DNA from: a virus
Reading direction: 5' to 3' (one strand)
Virus record (IMG/VR): IMGVR_UViG_3300022554_000033
DNA: 30,377 nt
The notes under the pieces were generated by a model, which saw only the letters and a list, made by a program, of their open reading frames with translations, was not told where the DNA came from and did no database searches. Position numbers and translations under genes: made by a program. This document shows, in pieces, positions 3,098 to 30,377 of the stretch. Each line of letters opens with the position of its first letter. Within the stretch, counting starts at the first letter, position 1.

Positions 3098-3102
3098 TGG
3101 CT

Positions 3103-3119: not shown

Positions 3120-3135
3120 CATTGGCTTTTCGGTT

Positions 3136-3152: not shown

Positions 3153-3166
3153 AGGAGAAAAACGGC

Positions 3167-5632: not shown

Positions 5633-5633
5633 A

Positions 5634-6725: not shown

Positions 6726-6726
6726 G

Positions 6727-9156: not shown

Positions 9157-9158
9157 GA

Positions 9159-12814: not shown

Positions 12815-12822
12815 ATTGCCTC

Positions 12823-13838: not shown

Positions 13839-13925
13839 GATTCACCTCTTCATGGGAACGGTTTTACGATCACCCGGCAAAACATGCCGCGTCTCCGTCC
13901 GCCGATGGTAGCGATGCAGGTCAAG

Positions 13926-13940
13926 TAATACTCAGTATTA
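13926..13940. repeat. Palindrome TAATACT-C-AGTATTA in the noncoding gap; its core ATACTCAGTATT is repeated at 13764..13775
   Basis: Both read directly. The 12-mer copies are 164 bp apart and straddle the connector gene start. Confidence 0.5.
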
Positions 13941-13964
13941 ATTGACAGTTTAGAACAATCCAAA

Positions 13965-14007
13965 GGCGGAGAGGGGGAACGCTCAGTAACGAGAACCCCC
14001 CCCCGCC
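13965..14007 (-). terminator. GC-rich imperfect hairpin, possible partial terminator after gene 14018..14404
   Basis: GGCGGAGAGGGGG...CCCCCCCCCGCC arms, followed on the minus strand by TTTGGATTGTT (a weak U-tract). Confidence 0.35.
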
Positions 14008-14017
14008 CGCAAATCTA

Positions 14018-14404
14018 TTAAGTCAGTCGTTTCTCAACCAGGAACAACCCGCAGAACTGGTAGGTTGGCGAGGTGCCAGTTGTGGTTGCCACCATCCGGA
14101 TGTAGCGTTTCTTAGTCCGGAAGTGAATCTCCTGTTTGCTGTCCACAGTGGTCACTTGCGTGAACGCCGCGCCGGAAATGTCCGAGTACCCGGAACCGCC
14201 TCCGGTGTCGCTTTCCTGCACTTTGACATCCAGGGTCGGACTGGTGCCGGAGATCGCGTTCGCAGAGAGGATCGCTTTGATCTCCCGCCCGCCCGGGTTG
14301 ACATAGCCCATCAGATCCATGTCGCTGCCGTTGATTGTGGTTGGCGTTGAAACGGCCTGCGCTTGCAGCGTTTCTAGCACTGCTAAGTTTCTCATGGTAG
14401 CCAT
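14018..14404 (-). CDS. Putative capsid decoration / head accessory protein, 128 aa
   Basis: It is directly downstream of the major capsid gene. It is a beta-rich small protein. Its very strong initiation region is identical over 27 nt to that of gene 1154..1852. Confidence 0.6.
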   Translation of the reverse strand: MATMRNLAVLETLQAQAVSTPTTINGSDMDLMGYVNPGGREIKAILSANAISGTSPTLDVKVQESDTGGGSGYSDISGAAFTQVTTVDSKQEIHFRTKKRYIRMVATTTGTSPTYQFCGLFLVEKRLT

Positions 14405-14436
14405 TCTTGTTTTCTCCTTTTCATCATGATCTCGGA

Positions 14437-14458
14437 GGGGTGTATGGCTCTACACCCC
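14437..14458 (-). other. Stem-loop (GGGGTGTA / TACACCCC, 6-nt loop) 20 nt after the capsid gene stop
   Basis: 8-bp perfect inverted repeat read directly. No U-run follows. Confidence 0.4.
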
Positions 14459-14477
14459 CCTATCCAGAACTCCGATA

Positions 14478-15842
14478 TTACGATGTGCCTGCCTTCAGCA
14501 CTTTCATCCGGTACGGTTCAGCGCAGTATCCGCCGACGCGCTTGCGTCCCAAAAGCAGGGTCAGATTGGTTTCGGCGTAGATCTCGCTCAGTCGCTGCAG
14601 AGAGAACCCCACCCGGTCGAGCACGATATACCCCGACAGGTCGCCAAACAGGATCGGGTAGGTGTTTGTCCCAATGTCCGGCATGAACTCATCCACCCTA
14701 ACTGGCTTGCCCTTCACGCGCTCCGGCTCATCGCTTGCCAATCCTGCGTTCAGCAGGGTCTGCACGATGGGACGCTTCTGGGCATCCACCAGGTTCTCGA
14801 CCTCTTTCAGAGTGCTTGAGTTCATCACCCAGGCCGCGTTTCTCCGATACTGAGCTGGCACCGCATAGTACAGGTTTAACAAGCGCTGGCCAGAATGACC
14901 ATCGCCCGAGGTGGTGATCGCGGCGCTGGTGCCGGAGATCACGTACGCTGGTCCATTGGTATTCACTTCTGCCAGGATGCCCATGGGCTTGTTCACACCA
15001 TTGCCGTTGAGGAAAACATCGTCCTCGCCCAGAGCGAATGCCTCTGCCATCAAATCTGAGGAGACGCCCAATACATCGAATGCCGCGTCCTCGATCAGAT
15101 CGTTGGTGATCGGCATGCTCGCCATCGCCGTGTGCACCGGGATGGTGATCAACCCAAATACCGGGTCGGTCACACGATGTTCACTCGATGACGCCGGCTG
15201 CTCGCCGGTCCACGTCAGACGCACACCAGAGGTGTACTTGTCATCCGTGGTGTAGTTCACCCGTGGCCATTTTGCCATATCCCGGCTGGTGGTTACCACT
15301 CGCGCCAAGCTGCGGATTGCCGCCAGGGTTGCTACTTTTTTGATCAGCTCTGCATGATAGTCCTCTGGCACCAAAAAGCCGCCGGCGCTGTCAACGCCTG
15401 CGGACAACGTCTTGCGGTCTGACGGACCCAGTTCACCAAATCCCTTACGCAGGTATCCCTCGAATGCCGGGGAGTACTCCTTTGCCTGCACCACAATTGG
15501 CACGTGATAACGCAGGGTTTTCACGCCCACGGGTGTGGCAATCTCCATCTGCCGCCATGCCTTCACATCCACTGCCGGCGCGCCTTCATCAGGACCGGCA
15601 GGACGCCAGCCCAGATGAGCTGCCTGTGGATCACCAGGCCCATTCAAAAACTGGTCACTATCAGCCAGGCGCTCCGCCAGGTTGATCTTGGCTTTGATCT
15701 CATCCGCCTGCCCAAGAATAGTATCGATCTGCCTCGCTGCCTCTTGGGTCATCTGCTCTTCTTTGCCCTTCCATTGCGCAGCCAGCGCCTGGGCTTCAGC
15801 GATCTTGGCTGCGTACGCTTTGCGTAACTGTTCTAGGTTCAT
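14478..15842 (-). CDS. Major capsid protein, HK97 family, with N-terminal delta-like coiled-coil region
   Basis: N-terminal helical region MNLEQLRKAYAAKIAEAQALAA..., then GGFLVPEDYHAELIKKV...LARVVTTS typical of HK97-fold MCPs. It follows the prohead protease gene. SD GAGGTGA is present. Confidence 0.93.
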   Translation of the reverse strand: MNLEQLRKAYAAKIAEAQALAAQWKGKEEQMTQEAARQIDTILGQADEIKAKINLAERLADSDQFLNGPGDPQAAHLGWRPAGPDEGAPAVDVKAWRQMEIATPVGVKTLRYHVPIVVQAKEYSPAFEGYLRKGFGELGPSDRKTLSAGVDSAGGFLVPEDYHAELIKKVATLAAIRSLARVVTTSRDMAKWPRVNYTTDDKYTSGVRLTWTGEQPASSSEHRVTDPVFGLITIPVHTAMASMPITNDLIEDAAFDVLGVSSDLMAEAFALGEDDVFLNGNGVNKPMGILAEVNTNGPAYVISGTSAAITTSGDGHSGQRLLNLYYAVPAQYRRNAAWVMNSSTLKEVENLVDAQKRPIVQTLLNAGLASDEPERVKGKPVRVDEFMPDIGTNTYPILFGDLSGYIVLDRVGFSLQRLSEIYAETNLTLLLGRKRVGGYCAEPYRMKVLKAGTS

Positions 15843-15846
15843 TGTT

Positions 15847-16947
15847 TCACCTCATGGTCAAAAATATAGGGTCTCTGGTTGCAATTGCCAGCCTTCGCAG
15901 TACCTGCCCAGTGAGTGCCCGACTTTTTTCATCGTCAGGCGGCTCGGCTGCTAACAGGATCTCCTCCAGCACTTCCAGTGCGTTCTTCAAGCGCTCCAGG
16001 TTGCGGGCGCTCAGCACTCGGCCTTCTTTCAATTCTGGCAGCATCAGCCGCGATAAATACGACCAGCGCACCAGTTTCATTTCCGGGGGGACTTTATCGA
16101 ATTGCTCATAATGCCGCGCGAGGTGCTTGTAAACCGCCTCTACATCACCCTCGGGGATATCTACCCCGCCTCGTGCTCCCATCAATGCCCCCATGGCTGC
16201 CGCACAGCCCCGCCATACTACCTTGCCTACCCCGGTTTTCTCCGCTTTGTGATGTGGCAACTTGCAGTCAGTAAACTTTTCAGGCGGCATAGAGACCACC
16301 CACGCATAATGCGCCGCGATGCGCCGCCTTTCGGATTCTGATAGGTCATCCCAGGATTGCTCAGTAAAATCGGTTAGGCGCGGCGCTGACCATTCTTCAC
16401 CCTCGTCGGCAATGCCCGTGTCCTTATAAGGCACTGCCGCCTTGCTCGCGATAGTGGCATTGTTCGCTCCCCAGTTCACGTCCGATGTGTCCCAGATACG
16501 CACCTCGCGCAGATTGCGCACCATGAGTTTACGGTCATCATACTCAATTTCCGCGAAGTCATACTTCACCGGGTCATAGCCAATGCTCATCTCTGAAATT
16601 GCGCCCGTCCGGATCCCCTCCAGGATTTCATCGCCGCGCGGCGTGCGTAGGTATTCGCGCACTACTATCAGCCCGCCAGTAGCATCCGGGTATTCTTTTT
16701 TGACCTCATCCGGCAGCTCCGCCGTGTCAACCTCTCTCAGCTCTCGCACCGCTGCCACCGGCGGTTGCATCATATCGTGCTGCCATAAGTGGCGTACCCT
16801 GCCGGCGTTCTCTTTTATGGTCTTCTTGAAAGCGCCTCTGTGGATGATATCCCAATAAGTATCCACGTTCCCGGTGATCGCTGCCAGCCCGGTCACGGTG
16901 CGATCCTGGATGTCGTTTACCTGTGTCTGAATAGATTTGTATTCCAT
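15847..16947 (-). CDS. HK97-family prohead protease (S78) with long C-terminal scaffold-like extension
   Basis: DTYWDIIHRGAFKKT...RHLWQHD...ISEMSIGY match the S78 protease pattern. The C-terminal EGRVLSARNLERLKNALEVLEEIL helical tail is typical of protease/scaffold fusions. Confidence 0.88.
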   Translation of the reverse strand: MEYKSIQTQVNDIQDRTVTGLAAITGNVDTYWDIIHRGAFKKTIKENAGRVRHLWQHDMMQPPVAAVRELREVDTAELPDEVKKEYPDATGGLIVVREYLRTPRGDEILEGIRTGAISEMSIGYDPVKYDFAEIEYDDRKLMVRNLREVRIWDTSDVNWGANNATIASKAAVPYKDTGIADEGEEWSAPRLTDFTEQSWDDLSESERRRIAAHYAWVVSMPPEKFTDCKLPHHKAEKTGVGKVVWRGCAAAMGALMGARGGVDIPEGDVEAVYKHLARHYEQFDKVPPEMKLVRWSYLSRLMLPELKEGRVLSARNLERLKNALEVLEEILLAAEPPDDEKSRALTGQVLRRLAIATRDPIFLTMR

Positions 16948-16954
16948 TGTCGCC

Positions 16955-17362
16955 TCACTTGATCAGATCATGCACTGCCTGTTCGTAGATCTTGACAATC
17001 ACATCCTTCGCTTTCATTACTACTCCCTGAAGTGTCCACCAGCGCCCTTTGTGCATCCACGCCTGCGGTCCACGCTTGCCAACCGCCTGGTCGCTGATCA
17101 CCCACGGGGCGTAAACGATTGGGGTGCCGATCACCCCAACGATCGTGCTGCCAAGCTCTCTTACCTCAGTTGATATACTGGCACCCATTTTTTCCGTTCG
17201 CCGATACGTGCTCAACGGTGGCGGAGGTGGATACGGCGGCACTTCCGAATGCACGTATAGAATCGCCCTACGCGTTGCCTGGACGAGTGCCGGTTTTATT
17301 TCTGTTCCTATCCGCCCCAGCTCCTTACTCAGCTTATCCATGCCCTTGATTTCAAGTTTCAT
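16955..17362 (-). CDS. HK97 gp10-like head-tail joining protein
   Basis: MKLEIKGMDKLSKELGRIG...ALVQATRRAILYVHSEV and GVIGTPIVYAPWV fit the gp10-family pattern. Confidence 0.55.
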   Translation of the reverse strand: MKLEIKGMDKLSKELGRIGTEIKPALVQATRRAILYVHSEVPPYPPPPPLSTYRRTEKMGASISTEVRELGSTIVGVIGTPIVYAPWVISDQAVGKRGPQAWMHKGRWWTLQGVVMKAKDVIVKIYEQAVHDLIK

Positions 17363-18555
17363 GCTTGACTTTGCCCATCGTTTTTGGTATCATAAAAGTG
17401 GTTCTGGGGTAGGATGTCGTCTCCTACATCCTCGAGAGAGGTCAAGATGCCGACGTGACGCACGGTGGACGGGACCATAAGCCGGGTTTTCCCGGCTTTT
17501 TTCGTGCCGATCCAGCGCTGCCTGAGCTGTCCACTCTCATCATATAAATATCTCTCACCCGCTCGGAATATGTTGTAAATCGCATGCAGTTGATTGCTCC
17601 GCCTGGAGTCTCTCAATTGAATAACTACCACAAGATAGGGTGGCTCTCCCTCTCTATGCGCCACAGATACAACGTGCGCCATCGTCAAGCCGCTTTTCAG
17701 CGAGCGAGGTGTCATTTCAATAAAATCGGGTCGCTCAATGGCTTTCCTCACCATTGATAGACGAGTATTGATCCAGCGAAAGTCTTCAGGATGTTCTCGC
17801 GCAATATACCGTACCTGTCCAGGCAAAACCCGCACATCATTTACCTGAAATGCTTCTCCCTTCAAATCAGGCAAAATATCCCCATACTGAAACGAGTTGA
17901 CTCCCAGCTCGTATGCTTTGTCTTCTTTAGGATTAAATGCCGGAATCGTTAACACCACCGGCTGTAAATAACACCTGCACCGCACATGCGCTGGCGGCGC
18001 GCTTATCCCATCAAATCCAGTCTCGTCATCCAGGGCAACTTCCATACCGTCTAATGGCGCGCATATCTCACACACCAGCTCATCTTCGCCGGTCATCCAC
18101 CGTTTGCCTTCGACTATCCCGCTTTCTCGCCAAGTCGCCAGATTGCCCTCAGCAAATGCCCGCGTTGTCTCAGTAACGCCTATCATCTCCGCCCGCACCG
18201 GTCCCCACATTGGCTCCAGCTTTTTGAGCAACACAGGCAATGGCTCACCGCTCCCGATCCACTCACTTAACTCCTGCTGCAAAAAATTCTTGCTGGTCTC
18301 TGTAATGCCCTTCACCAAGTCATAAGTGTATTCTTCCGCCCATTTTTTCACCGCCTCATTCACCAGCCGCCAGTCAACGCCAATACCGATCTCTTCCAAA
18401 TCTGTTAGCGCCGACTTTGCGCCCTCTACTGCTGCTTTGCCAATCAACGGCGTTAGCAGCTCAAACAAACGCTCCCGTTCGTCCTCCCAAAACGATGTGT
18501 CCGGGAAACGTTTCGTGTTCACACCAAACAATAACTCAGCAACGCTAAGCGCCAT
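17359..18555 (-). CDS. Head morphogenesis protein, Mu F / SPP1 gp7 family, with about 190-aa extra C-terminal domain
   Basis: VTETTRAFAEGN...CEICAPLDG...PPAHVRCRCYLQP is the MuF signature. Residues 205-398 are an additional domain. Confidence 0.85.
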   Translation of the reverse strand: MALSVAELLFGVNTKRFPDTSFWEDERERLFELLTPLIGKAAVEGAKSALTDLEEIGIGVDWRLVNEAVKKWAEEYTYDLVKGITETSKNFLQQELSEWIGSGEPLPVLLKKLEPMWGPVRAEMIGVTETTRAFAEGNLATWRESGIVEGKRWMTGEDELVCEICAPLDGMEVALDDETGFDGISAPPAHVRCRCYLQPVVLTIPAFNPKEDKAYELGVNSFQYGDILPDLKGEAFQVNDVRVLPGQVRYIAREHPEDFRWINTRLSMVRKAIERPDFIEMTPRSLKSGLTMAHVVSVAHREGEPPYLVVVIQLRDSRRSNQLHAIYNIFRAGERYLYDESGQLRQRWIGTKKAGKTRLMVPSTVRHVGILTSLEDVGDDILPQNHFYDTKNDGQSQA

Positions 18556-19885
18556 CCGCCAGTTCCTTTTTGATTCGTTTGTATTGACCGGTCAAGTAGC
18601 CATCCATCGCCTCGGTGATATCACTCTCTGCAGACCGCCGGCTTTTATACTCAGTCTTACCGTTACTCTTTGCAGACTGCTTGATAGGCACTTCGACAAC
18701 GGCCATCCCGCGCAGATACACATTGCCTGCTTTGCCCTTGTCTGGCAATCCAACTTCATCGCAGAATTCGTTCACTGTGATCGCGCCAGCTTTGAGCGCT
18801 TCAGTCGCCCGGGTCCAGCGCATATTGCGCTCTTCTTGTAATGCGTTCACCCGACTGAAGTCCCATTCTATGCTGATATCATCGCCGAATTCTGTTGCGA
18901 GTTGATTGATAATGACATCCAGGAAGTTAGCGTATAGCGGGATAAGGCTGTCTTCCCACCATGCCCGCCGCGCCTCACCGTAATTTGAGTACGTCGCCCG
19001 GTCTAATCCAATCTTCGCGCCAACCAGAATTGGCGGTATGTCCATCACCATGCAAATGCGCGCTTCGCTGCGTGCATCTAATTCGCCGAAGCCCATCTCG
19101 GCAAACGATAGACCGATCCTCTGATACTCAGCGTCCGAGTCCAACACAGCCGGTTCTAGCCAGTGCTCGAATCCGCCGTATCTCTCTCTCCATCGCCGCC
19201 GAATGTCAGCTACCTGGGTGTCTTGTAGCTTCTGCACGGTTTTTAACAACCCAGGCGGCGCGCCGCCTTTCTCGAAAAACAATCGCACATAATCCGTCAC
19301 CGCGTTATCCACATCTCCTACCCGGGCTGCTACTGCCACAGGCGGCCAGCCATTGTAGAAATTGATCGGATCAAATAGCTTGAAATCCAACACATCCTCA
19401 GGCAGCAACGTTTGCGGCGACATTCCCGGCGGTGCATATTCGTACCCGCCAATCATAGATTGCGAGCTAGCTAGTGGTTTTACCCAATCTGGGCGCAACG
19501 GCCAAAGCTGCACCACCTGCCCTGCCCGGCTACGTACTTTTTCAAAGATCGCCCTGCCAGCTAATTTTTGATAAATAATCACCGCTGACCAAAAGTCATA
19601 TTCACTCATAAACGGGTTCGGCTTCTGAATAAGACTTTTAAGTGGGTGTTCTGGTAATTCATTCCCATCGCGCCGCGAATAAACCTTTAGCTCCACTTGA
19701 GATGCCGTATTGGCTGCCTTATTGATACACGAAAATATCAGCTCGTTCTTGCGCCATCCATGACGCACCATGCTTTCGAAGTTAATCTCCGAATAGCTCG
19801 GCTGTCCCTCTTTCCAAGTTTCAACCAAAGTTGCCAATGCCTTCTCACGCCTGCCGGTCAGCCTATCCAAAAATCGCCTAAACAT
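18545..19885 (-). CDS. Portal protein (HK97-type family)
   Basis: FSCINKAANTASQVELKVY...HPLKSLIQKPNPFMSEYDFW matches the portal pattern. The ATG at 19885 (MFRRFLD) follows a G-rich SD and overlaps the terminase stop (ATGTTTAG). The track start at 19954 lies deep inside terL. Confidence 0.9.
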   Translation of the reverse strand: MFRRFLDRLTGRREKALATLVETWKEGQPSYSEINFESMVRHGWRKNELIFSCINKAANTASQVELKVYSRRDGNELPEHPLKSLIQKPNPFMSEYDFWSAVIIYQKLAGRAIFEKVRSRAGQVVQLWPLRPDWVKPLASSQSMIGGYEYAPPGMSPQTLLPEDVLDFKLFDPINFYNGWPPVAVAARVGDVDNAVTDYVRLFFEKGGAPPGLLKTVQKLQDTQVADIRRRWRERYGGFEHWLEPAVLDSDAEYQRIGLSFAEMGFGELDARSEARICMVMDIPPILVGAKIGLDRATYSNYGEARRAWWEDSLIPLYANFLDVIINQLATEFGDDISIEWDFSRVNALQEERNMRWTRATEALKAGAITVNEFCDEVGLPDKGKAGNVYLRGMAVVEVPIKQSAKSNGKTEYKSRRSAESDITEAMDGYLTGQYKRIKKELADGA

Positions 19886-21380
19886 GGATACCCCCCATCG
19901 CTGACCCATTCCGCAGATCGTTCCAGCTCCAAAATGCTGCATCAACCAGGTCAAATGGTTTAGTCAACGGGAACCGCCTGAGCGCACGCTCTAAAATCAG
20001 ATGTGTTCCATTTACATGCACAATTTTGCCCCGCTCATAGTCTGCCAGCATTTGCAGATTGCGCTCCACCTTGGGGCCATAGCCAGCCCCTGCTTTGTCC
20101 CATACCATTAGCGGCAACCAGGTCAGCTCGGGACGATCCTGCCGGATCTGCTCACACACCCGGTAATATACACTCTGCCAGGTATCCCCGCCCTGGTCAG
20201 TCTCAATCCCCACGTGATCGAACTGCAACTCGACTGCCTTGAGAATTGCCCTCTTTAGCGCGTCCTCCGGGCTGGTCACCTGCTCCCACGAGAACAAACG
20301 ATAGATGATCCCATCTTCGCCCAATCCATCCGCCTGAATCCCTTGGCTGTCGCTCTGGTCAGTGCTGGTTACTGCCGGATCAACCCACACACAACCCCGT
20401 ATGAGCACAGGCAGATCACTCCACTCACAATGCTGAAACTCAATATGATCCCAGATCCCACCTGGCGGTACATCTACCTCGTGCTGCGCCTCTTGCAGAA
20501 ACGATGTCAATCCCCAGGTTGTCATCTGTCCCTGGCATATTTCGAGATTCTGCCCTTCCCAAGTCGCCTTGCCAGCCGTAATCACAAACTGCCCACCTCG
20601 CTGCTCATACTCTAATCCTTCCACCGCCGGATACGGTCCGCTGACAATCCGATCAGCGAGCATCTCTGCCCGCCCGTCAACCAGCTGCGCCGCGATGCTG
20701 TTGGGGTGTATGAGGTTTTGAATAAACAGCACTGCACAATCCACACTGCCGGCAGGCAGAAGCGAGGTTGATATTGTTTCGACTTTCTTGCGAGTCGTTG
20801 CCAGGCTATCAAAACGCTCGTCCACGTCATCGAAAATGATCAGGTCTGGGCGCTGGTGCTCCACCTTTGCGCCACGGCTGCCCACATCCAAGCCCAGAGC
20901 ATCTATCGTCAATCCGCTGGCGGTCCGCAGTCGCTCCCGCCGCCAGCCTTTCGACGCCCCATACTTGCCAATCTTGCGTGATGCCAGGAGCGGGTGATAA
21001 CGTTCCAATTGCTTGCTTTCCAACATTGCCCCAATAGTCTCTACGTGCTTGTCGGCCTTCTCCTGAGTGGCAGAGACATACCAGATGTATTTGCGGCTTC
21101 CTTTAGCTCCCACTCGCACACAAGCCAGCTCAGCACTGGATGATTTTGCTCCACCTCTCGGCCAGATTGCCACCAGTGGGCACGGACGCACACCACGCTG
21201 TATTCCCTCTACCCACTCCCAAAACAACACGTGTCTATCGGCAAATGGCGCGCTGATATACGCCGGGTAGATAGCTTTCAGCCAACCCTGCCAGCTCTCT
21301 GGCGCCAACAGGGTCTTAGTCCCCAGGCGTTTCCTGCGCTCCAGCTCCGCCAACGCTCTGACCTGCACTTGCGAGTACAT
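19878..21380 (-). CDS. terL: Terminase large subunit
   Basis: Walker A-like WPRGGAKSS and Walker B DLIIFDDVDE. The C-terminal nuclease acidic motifs are VWVDPAV and GIETDQGGD. The ATG at 21380 has GGGGAGGA 8 nt upstream. Confidence 0.88.
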   Translation of the reverse strand: MYSQVQVRALAELERRKRLGTKTLLAPESWQGWLKAIYPAYISAPFADRHVLFWEWVEGIQRGVRPCPLVAIWPRGGAKSSSAELACVRVGAKGSRKYIWYVSATQEKADKHVETIGAMLESKQLERYHPLLASRKIGKYGASKGWRRERLRTASGLTIDALGLDVGSRGAKVEHQRPDLIIFDDVDERFDSLATTRKKVETISTSLLPAGSVDCAVLFIQNLIHPNSIAAQLVDGRAEMLADRIVSGPYPAVEGLEYEQRGGQFVITAGKATWEGQNLEICQGQMTTWGLTSFLQEAQHEVDVPPGGIWDHIEFQHCEWSDLPVLIRGCVWVDPAVTSTDQSDSQGIQADGLGEDGIIYRLFSWEQVTSPEDALKRAILKAVELQFDHVGIETDQGGDTWQSVYYRVCEQIRQDRPELTWLPLMVWDKAGAGYGPKVERNLQMLADYERGKIVHVNGTHLILERALRRFPLTKPFDLVDAAFWSWNDLRNGSAMGGIHV

Positions 21381-21954
21381 GCAGTGGGTCCTCCCCATTT
21401 GCGATTCGCGCCAACTGTTCATCACTCAGTAATGAGAGATCAATGTTCAGTGTAGTCAACCTACCTCCAGTCTCTATCCCGGCTGCCAGTCTTCGCAGCT
21501 TCGAAGCCAGCTCCATCGCGTCAACCAGGAATTTCCCGTTTAGCGCAACTGTCATAATCTCTTTCCCACTTCGATCAACCCGAGTGCTGGTCTTGATAAA
21601 CCTCGGCCCTTCTGCCAGGATCGCCTTAGACAATTCCAGCAACTCGCTGCCCACCTGCCATTCGTCCTCTCGCAACTGCGCATGGCGCTGAGCCCACTTG
21701 TCATGATCCTCAATCGCCCGCAGCTGCTCCCAGGCTGCAACCCGCGCCTGCCACGCGTAGTGTCCTGACCATTTGTCAAGCGTCGGCTTGCGCCTGGTCG
21801 GCGGATCAGTCTGCTGTCGGTATAGCATATGCAACTTTGCCAGACTACGCTTGAACCCCATCATGGCGTAGTCATACAAAGCACGGTTCGCTTTTGCCGA
21901 TTCGCCATCACAGCGCGCCAGTGGGTCATCAGGATTAAAAACAAACTCGGTCAT
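21316..21954 (-). CDS. terS: Terminase small subunit (putative)
   Basis: It is directly upstream of terL. N-terminal HTH-like ANRALYDYAMMGFKRSLAKL is followed by WSGHYAWQARVAAWE, a pattern seen in TerS proteins. Confidence 0.6.
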   Translation of the reverse strand: MTEFVFNPDDPLARCDGESAKANRALYDYAMMGFKRSLAKLHMLYRQQTDPPTRRKPTLDKWSGHYAWQARVAAWEQLRAIEDHDKWAQRHAQLREDEWQVGSELLELSKAILAEGPRFIKTSTRVDRSGKEIMTVALNGKFLVDAMELASKLRRLAAGIETGGRLTTLNIDLSLLSDEQLARIANGEDPLHVLASAGQSVGGAGAQETPGD

Positions 21955-22108
21955 CGAAATCGTCGCACTCGTACAACATCAAGCGATACTCTAACCCACG
22001 GATGTAATGTCGTAGCAGGTTGGCGGTTTCTGTATCTGTCTCCTCAATCTTCGCCAGCGCCAACTCGATATCTTCCTTGGTCACCAATTTGGGCTGAGTT
22101 TCACTCAT
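21935..22108 (-). CDS. Hypothetical protein, 57 aa
   Basis: The start MSETQPK overlaps the endolysin stop (ATGA). The protein is acidic and helical. Confidence 0.5.
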   Translation of the reverse strand: MSETQPKLVTKEDIELALAKIEETDTETANLLRHYIRGLEYRLMLYECDDFDDRVCF

Positions 22109-23004
22109 ACTGGCTCCGCATAGTATTGACCGTTTAGAACCAGGCACACCCACTTGCCATCATACTGCCCACCCTTGATTTGCAACCATGTTGAGCACAC
22201 TGGCGCGCCGGCTTTAATGTCCAGCACCTCAAACTCAGTATGAGAGGGCAAGTTACCTACGTCTGGAAAGTTGGTGCCTGGACCAGACCTTACATTCAAA
22301 TACGGGGATGCAGTCACTCGATATTTCAATTTATCACCTCCTGGCGGTTCAGGCATGCTTATTCCAAATTCCGCCCTGAATTGCTCAAGCGTTCCAGGAT
22401 ATTCATCCAGATCAACAGTTGGGTCAACTATCCCAGGTATCGTTTCGCTCCATGACCGCTGCCAGATAACGTAATCCTTCCACAGCTTCGGCATAGTCGG
22501 CTTGGGGGCTGTGTTGTATAACCCGCCACTGCCCGGGCTCGCTACCCACAGCCTGGTGCCCAGCGTCGACTTGAGATACTGGTTGGCGTATGCCTGGTTG
22601 GTATAGGTCAGCGGCATTTGCCCGTTGACGCGGGGCAGGTTGTACACATGGTAGTCAAACGTCCGCATCGCCCTCCCTGGGACACTCGCCGGTCTGATCT
22701 CCATGTCAATCGCAATAGGCCAATCCAGCGGACGGGCTCCCAGGTGCGCCAGGAAATTTGCTACCTGCGGTGGGTCATCTTGATCTGGCACAGGCACCGT
22801 GTAGGCTGTCACCAATAGTCCGGCCGCCTTCGCCCCCTCATAGTCGGCATGAAACCAAGGGTCACGGTAGTAACGCCCAACCGTGCAACGGATGGCAACA
22901 TAGTGGTAACCAGCTGCATAGATAGCCCCCCAATCGTGCGGCGCTGTGCCATGCTTGTGATTGTTATAGCTAGTATCGAAACCTAGCAAAGTCATTATCC
23001 GCAT
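22105..23004 (-). CDS. Endolysin: GH25-like muramidase with C-terminal SH3b cell-wall-binding domain
   Basis: GFDTS...DWGAIYAAGYHYVAIRCTVG..YRDPWF..YEGAKAAGLLVTAY resembles GH25. LNVRSGPGTNFPDVGNLPSHTEFEVLD...WLQI matches the SH3_3 pattern. Confidence 0.78.
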   Translation of the reverse strand: MRIMTLLGFDTSYNNHKHGTAPHDWGAIYAAGYHYVAIRCTVGRYYRDPWFHADYEGAKAAGLLVTAYTVPVPDQDDPPQVANFLAHLGARPLDWPIAIDMEIRPASVPGRAMRTFDYHVYNLPRVNGQMPLTYTNQAYANQYLKSTLGTRLWVASPGSGGLYNTAPKPTMPKLWKDYVIWQRSWSETIPGIVDPTVDLDEYPGTLEQFRAEFGISMPEPPGGDKLKYRVTASPYLNVRSGPGTNFPDVGNLPSHTEFEVLDIKAGAPVCSTWLQIKGGQYDGKWVCLVLNGQYYAEPV

Positions 23005-24759: not shown

Positions 24760-25641
24760 TCAACATTTTATTTGCTCTCGTAAGATCGCAATTGCATCAT
24801 CGTTAGACATACTGTGCAATCTGGCAAATAAATTGATCACATCCAGCGGCTTGGGCGTGCAGCCGGCAAAACAACCGCAAATCTGGCGCTGAGTGTCGAT
24901 CCAAAAACTGGGATGCCTGTCATCATGCAACGGACACGTTGTCAATAGCCAGTGGTCACCAGTGGCAATCGTATTGCCAAAAAAGCTCTCGATTGATAAA
25001 CTTGCCCGGATCTTGTCGATAACACCAGTACCGGGCGGAGCGCTGCGCGGCAACATAGCCAGGAGCCACGGGTCATCAACAGACCGGGCAACAACCGGGT
25101 TAACAACTCCCGCCGGCAAATCCTGATCTGCCAGCACAGCCGCCGGCAACACATCGGAAAGATTAGCGACCAAAGGGAAGTTAAAATGCTCAGTAAGGGG
25201 GGTATAGACAGCCCCGCTCGGGTGGATCGACCCTGCGCCGATCACATAACCCCCGCGGCACTTGATATCAATCTTACCGACGCGCCGGGTACGCTCGGGC
25301 TTGGGAAGACGAATATAAACATGTACACCCCGGGAAGTTACCACTTTATAAGCCATCCAGCTGACCCACTCCGGCGGTCCGGGTTGGCTTCTTGCCCACA
25401 ACAACCATTTAGAGTAATCACTCATATCGTCAAAATCTAAGACGGTTAATCCTTGCCAACCGGTTATAATCCCTATATTGCGTGGCTTCGCGAACCACCA
25501 CCGCAATTCTTGCTCAGTAGGGAGTTGGGATTGATATTGCTGCCATCGCAAGAGCGGTCGCTTGTCACGGTATTTCACCGGGATTACTGCGATCCCCCGG
25601 TGAAGAAAGCTTAGTGCAAGGTTTATTGCGGAATTGGTCAT
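24760..25641 (-). CDS. Bifunctional primase-polymerase (Prim-Pol, AEP) with C-terminal CHC2-type zinc finger
   Basis: GIAVIPVKYRDKRPLL.W...NIGIITG..GLTVLDFDD...RGVHVYI...GGYVIGAGSIHPSG fit the Prim-Pol N-terminal domain. CPLHDDRHPSFWIDTQRQICGCFAGC fits a primase zinc finger. Confidence 0.85.
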   Translation of the reverse strand: MTNSAINLALSFLHRGIAVIPVKYRDKRPLLRWQQYQSQLPTEQELRWWFAKPRNIGIITGWQGLTVLDFDDMSDYSKWLLWARSQPGPPEWVSWMAYKVVTSRGVHVYIRLPKPERTRRVGKIDIKCRGGYVIGAGSIHPSGAVYTPLTEHFNFPLVANLSDVLPAAVLADQDLPAGVVNPVVARSVDDPWLLAMLPRSAPPGTGVIDKIRASLSIESFFGNTIATGDHWLLTTCPLHDDRHPSFWIDTQRQICGCFAGCTPKPLDVINLFARLHSMSNDDAIAILREQIKC

Positions 25642-25659
25642 TGTTGTTCTCTAATATTG

Positions 25660-25754
25660 GTTACAGATGTTACATGTAACATCTATTAAATTACTTTTAC
25701 TGGTAAACTTAATTTAATAGCAGTTACGCGTAACATCTGTAACATCTGTAACAC
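25660..25754. repeat. Palindrome/iteron block: candidate replication origin
   Basis: The block contains a 20-bp perfect palindrome AGATGTTACATGTAACATCT (25665..25684). It has the inverted repeat ATTAAATTA-N16-TAATTTAAT (25685..25718) and the 12-bp palindrome GTTACGCGTAAC (25723..25734). It also has the 9-bp tandem repeat GTAACATCT x2 plus a partial third copy (25730..25754). There are eight GTTAC/GTAAC pentamers in 95 bp. Confidence 0.6.
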
Positions 25755-27212
25755 TCATGGCCCTTTCAATCGTATTCCTGCATAGCCGCGCAGCAAATTC
25801 CTTCCGGTTCTAGCAACAAACGGCTTCCCCAGTCCCAACTTAGTCAGCGCTGCTGCCAATTTGCGCGTATCCAGGTCGAATCCGGTTAGCCCAGCGTTTT
25901 TCAGCTCCGCCAAAATATCGAGCGTCGCCATCCACCACTGGTTATTGCCGGGGTCGATCTCAAATAAACGCTTGATAGTTTCCTCCACCACGTCTACAAT
26001 CTGATATTGTTGGTTGATTTCCTCCGCCTGGTCCCACTCGTGGGGTGTCAGCTCCCAGGGCTCGCCGCTTAAATACAGATCGAACGCTTGCGCCCAAACT
26101 TGGTCAACATCTATCCGAGTGTAAGACCAGTCGATATTCTCCAGGTGCACCACCATGAAACGCCGGTTGCCAGTTGGATCGGATAGTAAACCCCCCTCGT
26201 TGTTCGCCGTGCCGATGAAGCTAGTGATCACCTGCCCGATCAGATCAAATTTCGCGTACGGCTTTCGGTCTCTCACGGTCTGTGTGGTCAAAAACGCTTT
26301 CAGCGCTTCCCGGTCTGCCCGCCGGGTTGTAGAGCCAAACTCGTTCACTTCCCAGATCCACGTCCATAGGCGTCTTAATCTACAATCCTTGTCATCTGGC
26401 GTGATTGCTCCCTCATGGTAGTACTCCGGCATCGGGCTCGCCAGCCACTTCACAAAATGGCTCTTGCCGATGCGCTGCCTGCCATCCAGAACTAATACTC
26501 TATTTTGTTCACCCGCCATCACCCGCGCTACCGCCCCCACCAGCCAGCGCCGCATCCAGGTTGCAAAGACGTTGTGCTCATCCCAAAAACAAGCGCATAA
26601 ATTCCCGATTGGGTCGCCACCGTTAAATTTCAAGCCTGTCAAATAGTCCCGAATCGGATGATAACGGTGCAACCAAGCGGCGCCGGTGTAGGCGTCCTCC
26701 GCCACACCTACTTCCCACACCCCCACGTCGCGCAATTTGCCTCGGATGATCTTTGCCAGACCATCACTCACCGGCACGCCGTTTGCCTCGATCTCGTGGG
26801 TGCATAAGTTGTATTTGAATTCATATCCTAATGACTTCAGCACCTGCATATACTGAGCAGTCTTGCGTTTCTTTCCCGGGCTGGCGGTTTGCAGCCATTG
26901 CCGCAATTCAGCTGCCCGGGTGGTAATTGCCCCCAGCACAGCTGCCTGCGCCGCCGGCGGCAGGTTCTCGATGCTGAGAGCGATAGCATCTTGCACGTTG
27001 CCGCCAATTTGGATAATCTGCTCGTGCATGCTCCGCCATGGTTCTGCCCTCGGCGGCAACAAATTTGGCGGCTCGCCGCTCGCCAGGCAACGTGCAATTT
27101 GCTCCAGCCCATCGATAAATTCCTGCTCTGGCTCATTGGCGTAATATTGTTCCAGGATCTGGGCGTCGCCCGTATTAATCCCGGCATTGAGCAGGGTGCG
27201 TAAGTTCGCCAT
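25755..27212 (-). CDS. VirE-family / D5-like SF3 replicative helicase
   Basis: VLVLDGRQRIGKSHFVKWL (Walker A), WIWEVNEF (Walker B-like) and RKPYAKF...FIGTANNEGGLLSDPTGNRRF match the VirE (PF05272-like) pattern. Confidence 0.88.
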   Translation of the reverse strand: MANLRTLLNAGINTGDAQILEQYYANEPEQEFIDGLEQIARCLASGEPPNLLPPRAEPWRSMHEQIIQIGGNVQDAIALSIENLPPAAQAAVLGAITTRAAELRQWLQTASPGKKRKTAQYMQVLKSLGYEFKYNLCTHEIEANGVPVSDGLAKIIRGKLRDVGVWEVGVAEDAYTGAAWLHRYHPIRDYLTGLKFNGGDPIGNLCACFWDEHNVFATWMRRWLVGAVARVMAGEQNRVLVLDGRQRIGKSHFVKWLASPMPEYYHEGAITPDDKDCRLRRLWTWIWEVNEFGSTTRRADREALKAFLTTQTVRDRKPYAKFDLIGQVITSFIGTANNEGGLLSDPTGNRRFMVVHLENIDWSYTRIDVDQVWAQAFDLYLSGEPWELTPHEWDQAEEINQQYQIVDVVEETIKRLFEIDPGNNQWWMATLDILAELKNAGLTGFDLDTRKLAAALTKLGLGKPFVARTGRNLLRGYAGIRLKGP

Positions 27213-27219
27213 TTAGAGT

Positions 27220-27780
27220 TTATGCGTTCAGTAAAAGCTGCTTGGCTTTATCCAGTAGATTTGTTGCCCGATCTGCCGTCACAATCGCCCCGCCGGCTGC
27301 TTTTGCCAGCCGGGCCAGGAATTCGCGGCCGTGGGGTCTATCTTCCGGACCGACAAAAATCACATGAATCGTATTTTTGTATTGAACAGCGATCCCTAAC
27401 GCATCCGACTCGCTATTTGGCTCGCCATCGGAGATGACAATGAATTTCATCCCTGGCACGTCGGCGATCTTGGCAAATCTAAGCGCCCCGGCTAAATCAG
27501 TACCGCCGCCTAAGTATTGCGGTTTTCCGTTTGGGCAGAAGATGGTTGTATCTGAGAAGGCTAAAACCGCAATTTTCCCTGGCATGTTCTGTTGTAAGCT
27601 CGCTAGCTCCTCGCACGCCACACTATAGCGGGAACGCCCGTTGCGGGAATCTTCTGCCGCCATGCTGCCGCTCGTGTCAACGATGACGATTACATCGCAG
27701 GACAGGAATGTTTCCGCGATGCTCTTGCCCGTGTTTTGGGCAATTGATCCAAGTGATCCGGGGATGATTGCATTGTTCAT
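27220..27780 (-). CDS. von Willebrand factor A (vWA) domain protein with complete MIDAS, 186 aa
   Basis: VIVIVDTSGSM (D-x-S-x-S), GGGTDL (Thr) and VISDGEP (Asp). The ATG at 27780 overlaps the upstream stop (ATGA). The 71-aa N-terminal extension in the track is Arg/Ser-rich junk overlapping the previous gene. Confidence 0.85.
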   Translation of the reverse strand: MNNAIIPGSLGSIAQNTGKSIAETFLSCDVIVIVDTSGSMAAEDSRNGRSRYSVACEELASLQQNMPGKIAVLAFSDTTIFCPNGKPQYLGGGTDLAGALRFAKIADVPGMKFIVISDGEPNSESDALGIAVQYKNTIHVIFVGPEDRPHGREFLARLAKAAGGAIVTADRATNLLDKAKQLLLNA

Positions 27781-27968
27781 CGCACACAGTATTCCTTCCT
27801 CGCGCCGCAATACACGCACACGTACACTTCCCATCGTCCGTACTCGATCAACTGGTGGGCTGTACTCTTGCCGCACCGGTCGCAATACATCCGGTAGTAG
27901 TCGATCTTGCGCTTCCTGGCTACTGCTTGTCTCACCATTTCGATGAATTGCACGCTTTCTTTGCTCAT
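27777..27968 (-). CDS. Zinc-ribbon protein, 63 aa
   Basis: CDRC-x17-CVYC. There are ATGA overlaps at both ends (27965..27968 and 27777..27780). Confidence 0.65.
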   Translation of the reverse strand: MSKESVQFIEMVRQAVARKRKIDYYRMYCDRCGKSTAHQLIEYGRWEVYVCVYCGARKEYCVR

Positions 27969-28813
27969 ACCCATCTCTCCGTAAATGTGTCATTGCCTGG
28001 CTGCCAGCTTGTTACTAAGACCTGTCCCCGGCTATTAACGATATCCTCCCACGCCAGGATTTTTTGTGTGATAAAACGTCCTACCTGGTCAATTCCCTCC
28101 GCCATGATATACCCACAACGCAATGGCGAGCGATACCCGCCAGGAGTCAAGTCCATTGTTTGCCAATCAACTTTCCTCTTCATCGTGGCTTCCAGCGCCA
28201 ACCCGGCATCGTAACGGGCGCGCTTGTCTGCGTTGCTCAGGATCTCGTAGGCTTCTTGGATACGCATAAAGATCTCGACTGCGTTCTTTTCCTTGCAATA
28301 GTCGGGGTGCCATTGCTTCGCCATCCGGCGATAAGCGCGTTTGATCCCCTCGTCGTCGGCGTTCTGCGATGCGCATAACACCCCATATAACGATTGCGCC
28401 GGAGGTCTTTCGTTTTCTTGCACAACGCCATCGAACCACGATCGTAGCACTAGCTCCGGAAAGACAACTGACCATTCGCCGTTGCAATATCCGTAGGCGC
28501 TCCACCCGTCATCTCGCCATTTAGTAATGCCAATATAGCGCACGTCCAGTACACGAGTGTCAACAACTGGGGTTGTCACAATTTGCGGCGCTAATATGGC
28601 AACCCCGATATACTCAGCCACCCAGTTTGTCAGCGTCTGCCCATGCCGGGGATGCACCAGCCATCGCTTGCCATTCGGATCCCAGCGTCGTTCGGCTTGC
28701 GGCAGCGCTTTGATTTTCGCCGTCAAGCTTGGCTCATAGCTGCATGTCAGCGCCAGGGTGCCATTTTCGATAGTCAGCCGCGCGAATGGCGTGTGCTTGC
28801 TGTACCTAGTCAT
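27965..28813 (-). CDS. J-domain (DnaJ-like) protein with N-terminal HARP-like motif, 282 aa
   Basis: Residues 141-202, SLYGVLCASQNADDEGIKRAYRRMAKQWHPDYCKEKNAVEIFMRIQEAYEILSNADKRARYD, form a canonical J domain with HPD. The N-terminal SYEPSLTAKIKALPQAERRWDPNGKRWLV resembles the SMARCAL1-type HARP motif. The ATG at 28813 has SD AGAGGTAAG. Confidence 0.85.
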   Translation of the reverse strand: MTRYSKHTPFARLTIENGTLALTCSYEPSLTAKIKALPQAERRWDPNGKRWLVHPRHGQTLTNWVAEYIGVAILAPQIVTTPVVDTRVLDVRYIGITKWRDDGWSAYGYCNGEWSVVFPELVLRSWFDGVVQENERPPAQSLYGVLCASQNADDEGIKRAYRRMAKQWHPDYCKEKNAVEIFMRIQEAYEILSNADKRARYDAGLALEATMKRKVDWQTMDLTPGGYRSPLRCGYIMAEGIDQVGRFITQKILAWEDIVNSRGQVLVTSWQPGNDTFTERWV

Positions 28814-29570
28814 ACTTACCTCTACACTGCCCCCAAAAATCACAATAAGCTGGGCTGCACTTCCAGGTTGTGGGATTCTCAGGATAGACATTTCTGGATA
28901 TCGCTTCCCACACATGCCGGATCATCCCGAACAGCCACATCACCTGTCCTGGTGTATGCTTATGCTCGAATATGTCTATCTTGGGCTGTTTTGTCTTCAC
29001 AATCACATAATGCCTGAAAGTCCATTCGTGATTATGCTCACCTAACTGGTTTAGCGCGGCTAAGTAAAATAGCGGCTGCGTTTCGCCGGTCGCTCGGTCA
29101 GCAGACCACGACTTGGCGGATGTTTTGAAGTCCCCCGGCACACCCGCTAGGTCAATCATGTCAATATACCCAATCACCGGCACAGGCACCCCCGGCACGC
29201 GCAGCTCTACTTTGCGCTCGATCTCAGTTGCTTGTAATTCACTTAGGGCATCGCAGATCGCCCTGTCGCTCAGTATGCGAACGCCCTCGTTGAAATGTTG
29301 TTCCGGGGTGTCTGTGCCCCACACTATCTGCTCGCCCTCTAGAGCCTGGTTCCAGGCTCTTCCCCAAATACTGAGCAAATCCTCCTGAGTCATAATATTC
29401 TCTTCGATGGTCTGGTGCATTGCCTTGCCGAAAATCAGGTCGGGCGTTGAATAGGTCGGGATTTTTTCCACATACTTAAAGCGCCAGCTCGCTGGGCATG
29501 TCAGATAAGTTGTTATGCTCGAGTAAGACAAATGCTCGATCAGTGATATGTTTGATTGAGTGGCGCTCAT
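28806..29570 (-). CDS. Cas4-like / RecB-family PD-(D/E)xK exonuclease
   Basis: LSYSSITTYLTCPASWRFKYV (N-terminal Cys), GYIDMID...GDFKTSAK (D...D/E-x-K) and C-terminal CSPAYCDFWGQC (three Cys) fit a Cas4-type Fe-S nuclease layout. Confidence 0.85.
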   Translation of the reverse strand: MSATQSNISLIEHLSYSSITTYLTCPASWRFKYVEKIPTYSTPDLIFGKAMHQTIEENIMTQEDLLSIWGRAWNQALEGEQIVWGTDTPEQHFNEGVRILSDRAICDALSELQATEIERKVELRVPGVPVPVIGYIDMIDLAGVPGDFKTSAKSWSADRATGETQPLFYLAALNQLGEHNHEWTFRHYVIVKTKQPKIDIFEHKHTPGQVMWLFGMIRHVWEAISRNVYPENPTTWKCSPAYCDFWGQCRGKYD

Positions 29571-29571
29571 A

Positions 29572-30377
29572 TCATATTCTTCTACTTTCTAACACGCTCA
29601 AGATCTGCAGTACTTCTTCGTCCGTCGCTGGGATCTTTCCCCCGTTTGCGTTCATGATCACCTCGGCGTCGTAGGACTCCAGCAGTATTGCCAGTAGGTC
29701 ATGGTTAGTTTGTGTTTCTGGCTTTTGTACTGGAATTTCTGGTATGGACTCTGTTCCCGAAGTCAGCCATTCAATCACCGGCAGCATGAATTCCGGACCA
29801 GGCTTTTCGATCTTGAGATCGGCTACTGCTGGACAGCGGCTTTTAGAGACTGTCATAATGTGCGACCAGTCGATGTCACATACCAGGTCGAATTCGTACT
29901 CTACGCCGGGCCTCTGCACTGGCGCCATGCCCACCCGCCGTACCACGGTTTTGCCTTGCTCGTTGATTTCTTGAACATACTCCATCCGGCTGCGCATGGT
30001 AGTGATGACGTGGCATGGCGATTGCAGGATACTGTCCACCATACGGTTATGGATTGGAGTCACCGTTCTCCATGCAGTGTAATTGTTGCCTGGCGCCCGG
30101 TCTTTGATCTCCAACGCCCCTCCAACGCCTTCCCATGCGTGCGAGAGCGAATCGATCACCAATACCGCGTAACCCATACGTCCCGCCGCCAGCACTGCCT
30201 CGGTGTATCGCTCTGGTGAAAATGTGGTGAGCTCAAGTACATCAAATTCCCAGGGGATTCCATCGACAATTTCCCCTGCATATTTAGATGCACTGCCTCT
30301 TTCTGTGTCGATCACGGCGATCCTGCCGCCGTTTACCAGCGCGTGGGCGAAGCGCAGCGCCGTATAGGTCTTTCCCG
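29572..30377 (-). CDS. Sak4-like (AAA_24) recombination ATPase; 5' end continues at 1..191 after the circular junction
   Basis: Walker B VLVIDSLSHAW, with the AAA_24-like C-terminal half. The ORF is open to the window end. The full gene is 870 nt in the 30250-bp circle when started at the ATG equivalent to position 191. Confidence 0.85.
   Translation of the reverse strand, partial: GKTYTALRFAHALVNGGRIAVIDTERGSASKYAGEIVDGIPWEFDVLELTTFSPERYTEAVLAAGRMGYAVLVIDSLSHAWEGVGGALEIKDRAPGNNYTAWRTVTPIHNRMVDSILQSPCHVITTMRSRMEYVQEINEQGKTVVRRVGMAPVQRPGVEYEFDLVCDIDWSHIMTVSKSRCPAVADLKIEKPGPEFMLPVIEWLTSGTESIPEIPVQKPETQTNHDLLAILLESYDAEVIMNANGGKIPATDEEVLQILSVLESRRI
30251..30377. repeat. Terminal direct repeat, copy 2 (identical to 1..127)
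   Basis: Exact match, checked block by block. Confidence 0.97.

Follow-up and report, generated by a model that had tools for sequence, protein, structure and literature searches.

A J-domain protein and a vWA protein form a conserved gene pair in the replication module of a temperate phage

Introduction

The virus record IMGVR_UViG_3300022554_000033 of IMG/VR, a stretch of 30,377 nucleotides that was analysed over its whole length (hereafter the window), carries within its replication module three consecutive minus-strand open reading frames (ORFs), which encode a J-domain protein, a small zinc-ribbon protein and a protein with a von Willebrand factor A (vWA) domain. J domains act through Hsp70, and the locus raises the question of what such a protein would do among phage replication genes, and with which of its neighbours it would do so. 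The initial annotation, made from the sequence alone, saw in the three genes an undescribed, translationally coupled device that might bring the host chaperone DnaK to a DNA fork or to a vWA-bound client. We followed up this proposal by comparing the locus with its relatives and by modelling the J protein.

To our knowledge, no pair of an Hsp70 or J protein with a vWA protein has been described. None turned up in our literature search, joint searches for HARP, J domain, vWA, phage, DnaK and Anaerolineae gave no relevant paper, and phages of Chloroflexota are absent from the literature searched. The suggestion of an undescribed module thus stands for the J-vWA pair, of which we found no account there. 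Phage J-domain proteins are altogether almost unstudied: according to a 2026 review, the J domain is the only known domain in 48 of 49 unique catalogued phage J proteins, and Rki alone has been studied (PMC13254874). Here, we describe a large family of phage J proteins with a near-obligate vWA partner in the replication module.

Results

The conserved unit is a pair of genes

Related loci were gathered from IMG/VR, 80 through the J protein and 58 through the vWA protein, and from genomes (36); co-occurrence from the J side was counted over 108 distinct J-family sequences or loci. The conserved unit that emerges is a two-gene module of J and vWA, not a trio, since a vWA gene is present at 99 of the 108 loci and a homologue of the zinc-ribbon gene at a single one. 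The neighbourhood comparison proposed in the initial annotation hence fails for the three genes taken together and succeeds for two of them. Six of the nine loci without a vWA gene end at most 1.15 kb past the J gene, and J and vWA co-occur in ∼97% of the judgeable loci, versus 57% for the nuclease, 42% for the VapE-like helicase and 64% for the Prim-Pol genes of the same module at the same sensitivity. Seen from the other side, vWA homologues of at least 42% identity with enough upstream sequence carry a J gene, with one exception at most (L095), and vWA proteins below 37% identity are never found with one.

The J gene precedes the vWA gene on the same strand at 93 loci, follows it at three, and lies on the opposite strand at three others; the pair is therefore kept despite a changed order or strand at six loci. 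The pairwise distances of J and vWA proteins correlate at 0.62, close to the value for helicase and Prim-Pol (0.68), a known functional pair. The corresponding correlations with their physical neighbours are 0.26 (J and nuclease) and 0.21 (vWA and helicase), which shows that J and vWA co-evolve, or are co-inherited, more tightly with each other than with the genes next to them. Rearranged loci include L148 (vWA at 14-505, J at 566-1366), L151, L066, L068 and L077; their gene order is swapped, or a distance of several kb separates the two genes, which are then on opposite strands.

A hypervariable slot separates the two genes

The interval between J and vWA ranges from 0 to 5419 bp (median 469 bp), and the two genes are directly adjacent at 16 of 69 loci. 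It contains 198 ORFs over 94 loci, 121 of them singletons, and its cargo includes DNA methyltransferases, HNH endonucleases and pentapeptide-repeat proteins. Wide slots are seen, for example, in L002 (8837-11153), L030 (8042-13047) and L046 (7392-12811).

In the window this position is held by the zinc-ribbon ORF. The ribbon noticed earlier is there, with a spacer of 18 residues and not 17 (CxxC-x18-CxxC). A search of 5.8 billion proteins returned only two homologues besides the protein itself (70% and 54% identity), and its one occurrence among the related loci, in L073, likewise falls between the J and vWA genes. It has no match in Pfam, PHROGs, NCBIfam or PADLOC, and any ORF with a CxxC...CxxC pattern occurs in the gap at just 15 of 69 loci. 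The zinc-ribbon ORF is a real gene and a sporadic passenger outside the conserved module, and the J-vWA interval is a hypervariable slot of which it is one among many unrelated fillers.

Four modules make up the J protein

The same protein collection yielded more than 1000 matches to the J protein, i.e., a family of more than 1000 clusters at 90% identity, the best 120 of which are full-length (262-319 amino acids, aa) and 45-53% identical to the query. The N-termini of 30 aligned relatives are consistent with a start at position 28813. The alignment shows four conserved blocks and two variable linkers between them, and the AlphaFold2 (AF2) model of the full-length protein has a mean pLDDT (predicted local distance difference test) of 89.5, with low values only in the linkers 133-138 and 213-217. 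The order of modules is a HARP-like domain, a middle beta domain, the J domain and a family-specific C-terminal domain. Searches with the whole protein inform mainly on the J domain: PHROGs matches are to families of "unknown function" through the J domain, NCBIfam gives only DnaJ-type matches below threshold, and J domains dominate the Foldseek results of the full-length model in both PDB and BFVD, which are uninformative on the other domains, for which reason residues 1-135 were modelled on their own. None of the three proteins matches a PADLOC model at E≤0.01.

The J domain itself, which had been called canonical with its HPD motif at residues 169-171, is exactly that. Pfam DnaJ (PF00226) matches residues 142-202 with an E-value of 1e-20 (74.1 bits for a cut-off of 27.8), H169, P170 and D171 are invariant in all 31 aligned sequences, and Foldseek superimposes solved J domains, among them the DnaK-bound 5nro_B, at a root mean square deviation of 1.1-1.4 Å. 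DnaJ is the sole Pfam match at E≤1, and the DnaJ equivalogs of NCBIfam match via the J domain only, far below their cut-offs. The protein has no G/F region, no DnaJ zinc finger and no DnaJ C-terminal domains, and by these sequence criteria it is a class C J-domain protein (Hsp40).

The C-terminal four-stranded beta domain is the best-conserved block of the family, with Y227, C233, G234, I252, D257, L266, S269, W270 and W281 invariant. Its profile has 397 matches at E≤0.001 among 1.84 billion representatives (∼400 clusters at 50% identity) and none at E≤10 among PDB sequences. Among the best 150 matches listed, the domain lies nearly always at the extreme C-terminus, and all nine genuine matches that were scanned with Pfam have a J domain just upstream. 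The match to P0256, a surface protein of 2444 aa with SpaA/prealbumin-type repeats, was taken as spurious. As the domain is invariably coupled to a J domain, we regard it as a putative module for binding a partner or client.

The middle domain has a beta-beta-beta-alpha topology; it is confidently modelled and strongly conserved (Y93, K98, A106, W114, L123, W126 and F127 are invariant). Its Foldseek matches are weak and chromodomain-like (probability 0.6-0.77, E ∼1), and it is missing from the shortest variants of the family.

The N-terminal domain is HARP-like in the family and in fold

A resemblance of the N-terminus to the HARP domain of annealing helicases had been proposed from the string YEPSLTAKIKALPQAERRWDPNGKRW, which begins at residue 26. 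We call this domain HARP-like with moderate confidence, since three partly independent routes, namely Pfam on the relatives, a profile search of PDB and AF2 with Foldseek, agree. Of 31 family members, 12 have a Pfam HARP (PF07443) match at E≤1 (best E-value 3.2e-6), and P0034, P0083 and P0118 reach the gathering score, with 25.0-27.0 bits for a cut-off of 25. The best PDB match of the family's N-terminal profile is 4O66, the HARP domain of SMARCAL1 (E 0.0037), in an alignment spanning the conserved Y26 and the invariant K35, P38, R42 and W51. The AF2 model of residues 1-135 has a pLDDT of 92.7, and a Foldseek search with it, the check suggested in the initial annotation, places 4o66 at ranks 1 and 2 (probability 0.98), followed by XPB (2fwr, 6p66 and 2fz4, probability 0.80-0.85) and then MutS (6i5f). 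The proposal thus holds for the family and for the fold, and does not extend to a Pfam HARP match of the window's own sequence. The HARP domain of SMARCAL1 (PDB 4O66) is reportedly, from work of Mason and colleagues in 2014, a structure-specific DNA-recognition domain, and the same authors are said to have found its fold in common with the XPB damage-recognition domain and MutS domain I. Residues 1-80 of the window's J protein (28574-28813) also have a weak Pfam match to DUF5710 (E 0.043).

Shorter natural variants of the protein consist of the middle, J and C-terminal domains (∼200 aa) or of the J and C-terminal domains alone (∼155-180 aa). HARP is lacking in L073, L075, L078, L120, L155 and L157, and L113 has only the J and C-terminal domains. 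All of these truncated loci have kept the vWA gene, and no separately encoded HARP ORF was found near the J gene of the HARP-less loci. The existence of these variants points to the J and C-terminal domains as the invariant core, and to HARP as a common, dispensable targeting add-on.

A stand-alone vWA domain with a complete metal site

The third gene had been described as a vWA protein with all residues of the metal ion-dependent adhesion site (MIDAS), which we could verify: DTSGS at 35-39 (27664..27678), with D35, S37 and S39 complete, is accompanied by T94 and D118, and these residues are invariant in 16 of 16 relatives. Pfam VWA_2 matches with 28.3 bits (cut-off 27), and PHROGs offer essentially nothing. 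Among 1065 relatives, the best 120 listed are 184-204 aa long and none is fused to another domain; the median vWA ORF of the loci has 190 aa, i.e., a uniform stand-alone domain of ∼185-195 aa. Among solved structures, those of generic prokaryotic vWA proteins (4RCK, 5A8J, BatB) come closest, and the vWA profile matches 4RCK, 5A8J and 3IBS. The matches in Gordonia phages (Opie gp46 and the CobT-like protein of VanLee) were judged unrelated, being ∼31% identical and in another context; no J gene lies nearby in Opie.

The pair lies in a compact replication operon

The three ORFs are joined by ATGA start/stop overlaps exactly as first reported (27965..27968 between J and zinc ribbon, 27777..27780 between zinc ribbon and vWA), and the flanking genes are indeed a Cas4-like nuclease of the PD-(D/E)XK type and a VapE-like helicase, both by Pfam (Table 1). 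Such tight junctions are the rule throughout the operon: of the six junctions between the AAA_24 and Prim-Pol genes, five measure at most 8 nt (a 1-nt gap between AAA_24 and nuclease, overlaps of 8, 4 and 4 nt between nuclease and J, J and zinc ribbon, and zinc ribbon and vWA, and a 7-nt gap between vWA and helicase), so the ATGA overlaps are not specific to the three genes. A scan of the minus strand over 27220-28813 revealed no promoter- or terminator-like site inside. The coupling of the three genes is ordinary phage operon packing and gives no evidence for a three-gene unit. A terminator-like hairpin with a 12-bp stem and a T-rich tail after it is the probable end point of the early replication operon, beyond which lie the lysis and late genes.

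Table 1. Features of the window, with coordinates from its first nucleotide.
Feature	Position	Strand	Basis or remark
J protein gene, 282 aa, four modules	27965..28813	-	ORF and translation
HARP-like domain, residues ~10-70	28604..28786	-	beta-beta-alpha-beta-beta-alpha
Middle beta-beta-beta-alpha domain, residues ~84-128	28430..28564	-	
J domain, residues 142-202	28208..28390	-	Pfam DnaJ; HPD codons 28301..28309
Family-specific C-terminal four-strand beta domain, residues ~225-282	27968..28141	-	
Zinc-ribbon ORF, 63 aa	27777..27968	-	
vWA protein gene, 186 aa	27220..27780	-	
AAA_24 RecA-like ATPase	29572..30315	-	Pfam AAA_24
PD-(D/E)XK Cas4-like nuclease	28806..29570	-	Pfam PDDEXK_1
VapE-like superfamily 3 (SF3) helicase	25755..27212	-	Pfam VapE-like_dom, E 6e-40
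Prim-Pol with CHC2 zinc finger	24760..25641	-	Pfam Prim-Pol, E 6e-24
Candidate origin, 84-bp imperfect palindrome	25660..25743	.	helicase-PrimPol intergenic region 25642-25754, 113 bp
Replication module	24760-30315		
Strong terminator-like hairpin	23636-23609	-	first strong one on that strand
GH25+SH3 endolysin	22105-23004		
Structural module (tape-measure protein, tail fibre, capsid, protease, portal)	5126-21425		
809-aa tail protein	6727-9156	-	CBM_4_9 carbohydrate-binding domain and Rax2/DUF5122 beta-propeller repeats
Integrase	4172-5125	+	
Helix-turn-helix (HTH) regulator	3083-3565	+	
ERCC4/Hef-XPF-like nuclease gene	184-942	-	Pfam ERCC4, E 1.5e-10

The operon belongs to a constant syntenic block that reads AAA_24, PD-(D/E)XK nuclease, J, variable slot, vWA, SF3 helicase and Prim-Pol. 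More than 90 loci have J and vWA in the same place, between the recombination and the primase-helicase genes, and the vWA gene usually lies directly beside the SF3 helicase gene, with a median gap of 91 bp to the helicase match. The nuclease was detected in 62 of the 108 loci and AAA_24 in 14 (at least 50% coverage). Eight loci had no tblastn match to VapE, and ten of their large ORFs were scanned with Pfam: six are SF3 helicases of the D5_N/DUF5906/VapE-like kind or Prim-Pol proteins, with D5-type domains fused to Prim-Pol in two of the six, three are DNA methyltransferases, and one has merely a weak ORC/CDC6-like match.

A candidate iteron origin next to the helicase gene

The intergenic region between the helicase and Prim-Pol genes, 1.5 kb downstream of the J-vWA pair, contains an imperfect palindrome with arms of 41 nt that are 85% complementary (inverted repeat) and with a predicted single-strand DNA fold of -23.7 kcal/mol (z -7.6). 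Seven GTTAC/GTAAC pentamers occur in these 113 bp where 0.15 would be expected (P 3e-10), and the centre between them is 81% AT. Relatives share the design with different repeat units, i.e., inverted sets of short direct repeats around an AT-rich spacer; L062 has GTTACAGAT in common with the window. From its sequence, we infer that the palindrome is a candidate iteron origin adjoining the gene of its initiator helicase.

Genome and hosts

The window is essentially a close-to-complete genome of a temperate siphovirus of ∼30.4 kb. A J protein identical to that of the window is encoded on a public contig of 30391 bp. The 809-aa tail protein is probably the receptor-binding protein. On a circular map the ERCC4/Hef-like gene would fall just upstream of the AAA_24 gene; it would be an unusual choice of junction nuclease for a phage recombination module.

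In data with one genome per species, the J family is found mostly on contigs of Chloroflexota (Anaerolineae, Bellilinea and the cultured Ornatilinea apprima P3M-1), with isolated cases in Chloracidobacterium and other metagenome-assembled genomes. Some of these host contigs span 0.25-2.1 Mb, which indicates that the carriers are prophages. In O. apprima P3M-1 (NZ_LGCL01000045.1, 159700-176512, on a 258-kb contig; locus L154) nuclease, J, vWA, VapE and Prim-Pol genes are all present, and this strain is a candidate for a cultured lysogen and a possible experimental system. The sole phage relative in GenBank is the uncultured spring-water phage MW202444.1, where two small genes lie between J and vWA and the pair is upstream of a protein annotated as RepA.

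Discussion

A possible DnaK recruiter for the phage replisome

We favour, with a probability of roughly 40%, the reading that the J protein is a DNA-targeted recruiter of DnaK that acts with its vWA partner in assembling or remodelling the primase-helicase replisome, by analogy with known chaperone-assisted replication systems. The intact and invariant HPD motif suggests that it would act through the host DnaK. A role at the replisome is suggested by the fixed position of the pair before the SF3 primase-helicase genes and beside a candidate palindromic origin, and the obvious candidate for its partner or client is the vWA protein, which is almost obligate and co-evolves with J. The HARP-like domain, judging by its fold, would place the J protein on branched or partly unwound DNA, with the palindromic iteron origin, forks, or D-loops produced by the AAA_24 and Cas4-like recombination genes as candidate targets. 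From what is established for J domains, the HPD-bearing domain would dock on host DnaK-ATP and trigger ATP hydrolysis. The C-terminal beta domain may bind a partner or client, and the metal site of the vWA protein, which would itself be an adaptor or a client, would most likely clamp an acidic residue, either in the C-terminal domain of J (candidates are D257 and E279) or in a component of the replisome. Through its ATP cycle, DnaK would then assemble the SF3 primase-helicase at the origin or fork, activate it or release it.

In a bolder version, the pair would represent an unrecognised class of Hsp70-targeting system: the C-terminal domain of J would dock on the vWA MIDAS in a DnaK-powered counterpart of MoxR-vWA systems, with HARP, in most lineages, directing it to branched or origin DNA; there it would load or activate the SF3 primase-helicase as a split parallel to T antigen. 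Taken as a whole, we consider this rather unlikely. If our preferred reading is true, the J protein would be the first case of a co-chaperone that a phage encodes specifically for replisome assembly, the pair the first of Hsp70/J and vWA, and the whole a convergent parallel to the J domain of T antigen; it would also open up the replication biology of Chloroflexota phages.

Several observations weigh against a DNA-targeted replisome factor. As several lineages dispense with HARP, DNA targeting cannot be the core function of the module. The window's own J protein has no Pfam HARP match even at E≤10, and the Foldseek E-value to 4o66 is 0.075, with a target-normalised template modelling score of 0.57. 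With respect to the pair, three loci with at least 6 kb of sequence downstream of J truly lack a vWA gene, no J-vWA fusion occurs among the matches listed from either side, and the distance correlation of 0.62 may reflect co-inheritance rather than physical interaction. Finally, Rki, the single phage J protein to have been characterised, has its effect on sigma-32 rather than on replication (PMC3486835).

The last point leads to an explanation by host take-over or counter-defence, in which DnaK, hijacked by J, inactivates or stabilises a host factor, the vWA protein is a decoy or adaptor, and the location in the replication module reflects incidental placement among early genes. Rki works in this way (PMC3486835), the J-vWA slot gathers methyltransferases, HNH nucleases and pentapeptide-repeat proteins, a cargo typical of anti-restriction, and HARP is dispensable in some lineages. 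Yet most family members retain a HARP-like domain of the kind that recognises DNA structure, and in more than 90 loci the pair holds its position between recombination and primase-helicase genes; the lack of any PADLOC match also speaks against it, a weak point since PADLOC covers defence and not anti-defence. We consider such a take-over unlikely. Still within DNA metabolism, J and vWA could instead be accessories of recombination or fork repair, working with AAA_24 (Sak4-like) and the Cas4-like nuclease on stalled forks or D-loops, where DnaK would turn over intermediates and neither origin firing nor helicase loading would be involved. HARP-fold domains are known from fork-regression enzymes such as SMARCAL1 and, in its N-terminal domain, T4 UvsW, and this would fit the structural matches to XPB and MutS, the nuclease as immediate upstream neighbour (62 of 108 loci) and the ERCC4/Hef-like nuclease encoded elsewhere in the window. 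The distances of J and nuclease correlate poorly (0.26), however, AAA_24 is detectable in just 14 of 108 loci, and it is the SF3 helicase gene that the vWA gene usually abuts, at a median of 91 bp; this makes the repair role distinctly unlikely in our view.

Both of these explanations, like the replisome reading, take J and vWA to be partners. If the two were instead independent and merely co-inherited within the syntenic block, the common ancestry of all block genes, the lack of fusions among the matches listed and the variable spacing (0-5.4 kb) would come as no surprise. Co-occurrence of ∼97% far above the 57%, 42% and 64% of nuclease, VapE and Prim-Pol would, and so would a correlation that neither gene reaches with its immediate neighbour, the survival of the pair through inversions and order swaps, and the presence of a J gene beside close vWA homologues with L095 as at most one exception; we therefore hold independence to be quite improbable. 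At the other extreme, an obligate three-protein device with the zinc ribbon as an integral, translationally coupled subunit would account for the ATGA overlaps on both sides of that ORF and for the homologue kept between J and vWA in L073. As a general statement it is refuted by the rarity of the zinc ribbon (one of 108 loci, and three matches, itself included, in the whole protein collection), and the direct adjacency of J and vWA at 16 of 69 loci, together with a gap where 121 of 198 ORFs are singletons and a CxxC...CxxC ORF appears at only 15 of 69 loci, leaves it extremely improbable for the module seen here.

Comparison with known systems

One of the closest parallels to a replisome-directed J protein is the large T antigen of the polyomavirus SV40, which combines a J domain, an origin-binding domain (OBD), a zinc domain and an SF3 helicase. 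Efficient replication of the viral DNA requires this J domain (cited in PMC13254874). Both would be cases of a viral J domain dedicated to a replication system with an SF3 helicase, and the layout compares well, in that the phage J gene, with its J domain and putative DNA-binding module, lies ahead of the vWA gene and the gene for an SF3 helicase (VapE/D5-like). The candidate origin also resembles the SV40 core origin, with short inverted sets of pentamers around an AT-rich or palindromic centre. Unlike in T antigen, the parts are separate polypeptides in the phage, the DNA module is HARP-like and not an OBD, the vWA partner is without counterpart in T antigen, and the host chaperone is the bacterial DnaK. 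The likeness is one of analogy and not of membership, as there is no sequence relationship past the J and SF3 folds.

The action we propose would also be akin to the O-P-DnaB preprimosome of lambda, which the host's DnaJ, DnaK and GrpE remodel, and to the plasmid initiators RepA and RepE, where an initiation complex at the origin is disassembled or activated by Hsp70. The present phage differs in that it brings its own specialised J protein, whereas lambda borrows the host DnaJ, and in that its helicase is of the SF3 type and not DnaB, with no P-like loader. As a phage class C J-domain protein, it compares with Rki (ORF 057w of the T4-like phage RB43, PMC3486835), which has a functional HPD motif and targets the host DnaK. 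Rki is, in contrast, a small ORFan without HARP, middle or C-terminal domain and without a vWA partner; it stabilises sigma-32 and is encoded outside any replication module.

The motif Y-x3-L(I/V)-x3-K-x-LP-x3-R-x-(W/Y)-D-x3-K-x-W and the fold are common to the N-terminal domain and the HARP domain of SMARCAL1. SMARCAL1 has a tandem pair of such domains and an SNF2 ATPase motor, where the phage protein has a single HARP-like domain and no motor; with 282 aa and without an SNF2 or ATPase domain it is not an annealing helicase, and the energy source of the system would be DnaK, recruited in trans. The J-vWA pairing recalls the MoxR-vWA pairs (RavA-ViaA, CbbQ-CbbO, NorQ-NorD and the CobS/CobT-like pairs of phages), in which the gene of a stand-alone vWA adaptor with a MIDAS is likewise paired with that of the component through which an ATP-driven protein remodeller is targeted. 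The neighbours of the pair (AAA_24 RecA-like, PD-(D/E)XK, VapE and Prim-Pol) include no match to MoxR, AAA_3 or AAA_5, and without an AAA+ partner the phage pair is not a MoxR-vWA system. Since the gene paired with vWA encodes a J protein, the motor in its place would be Hsp70.

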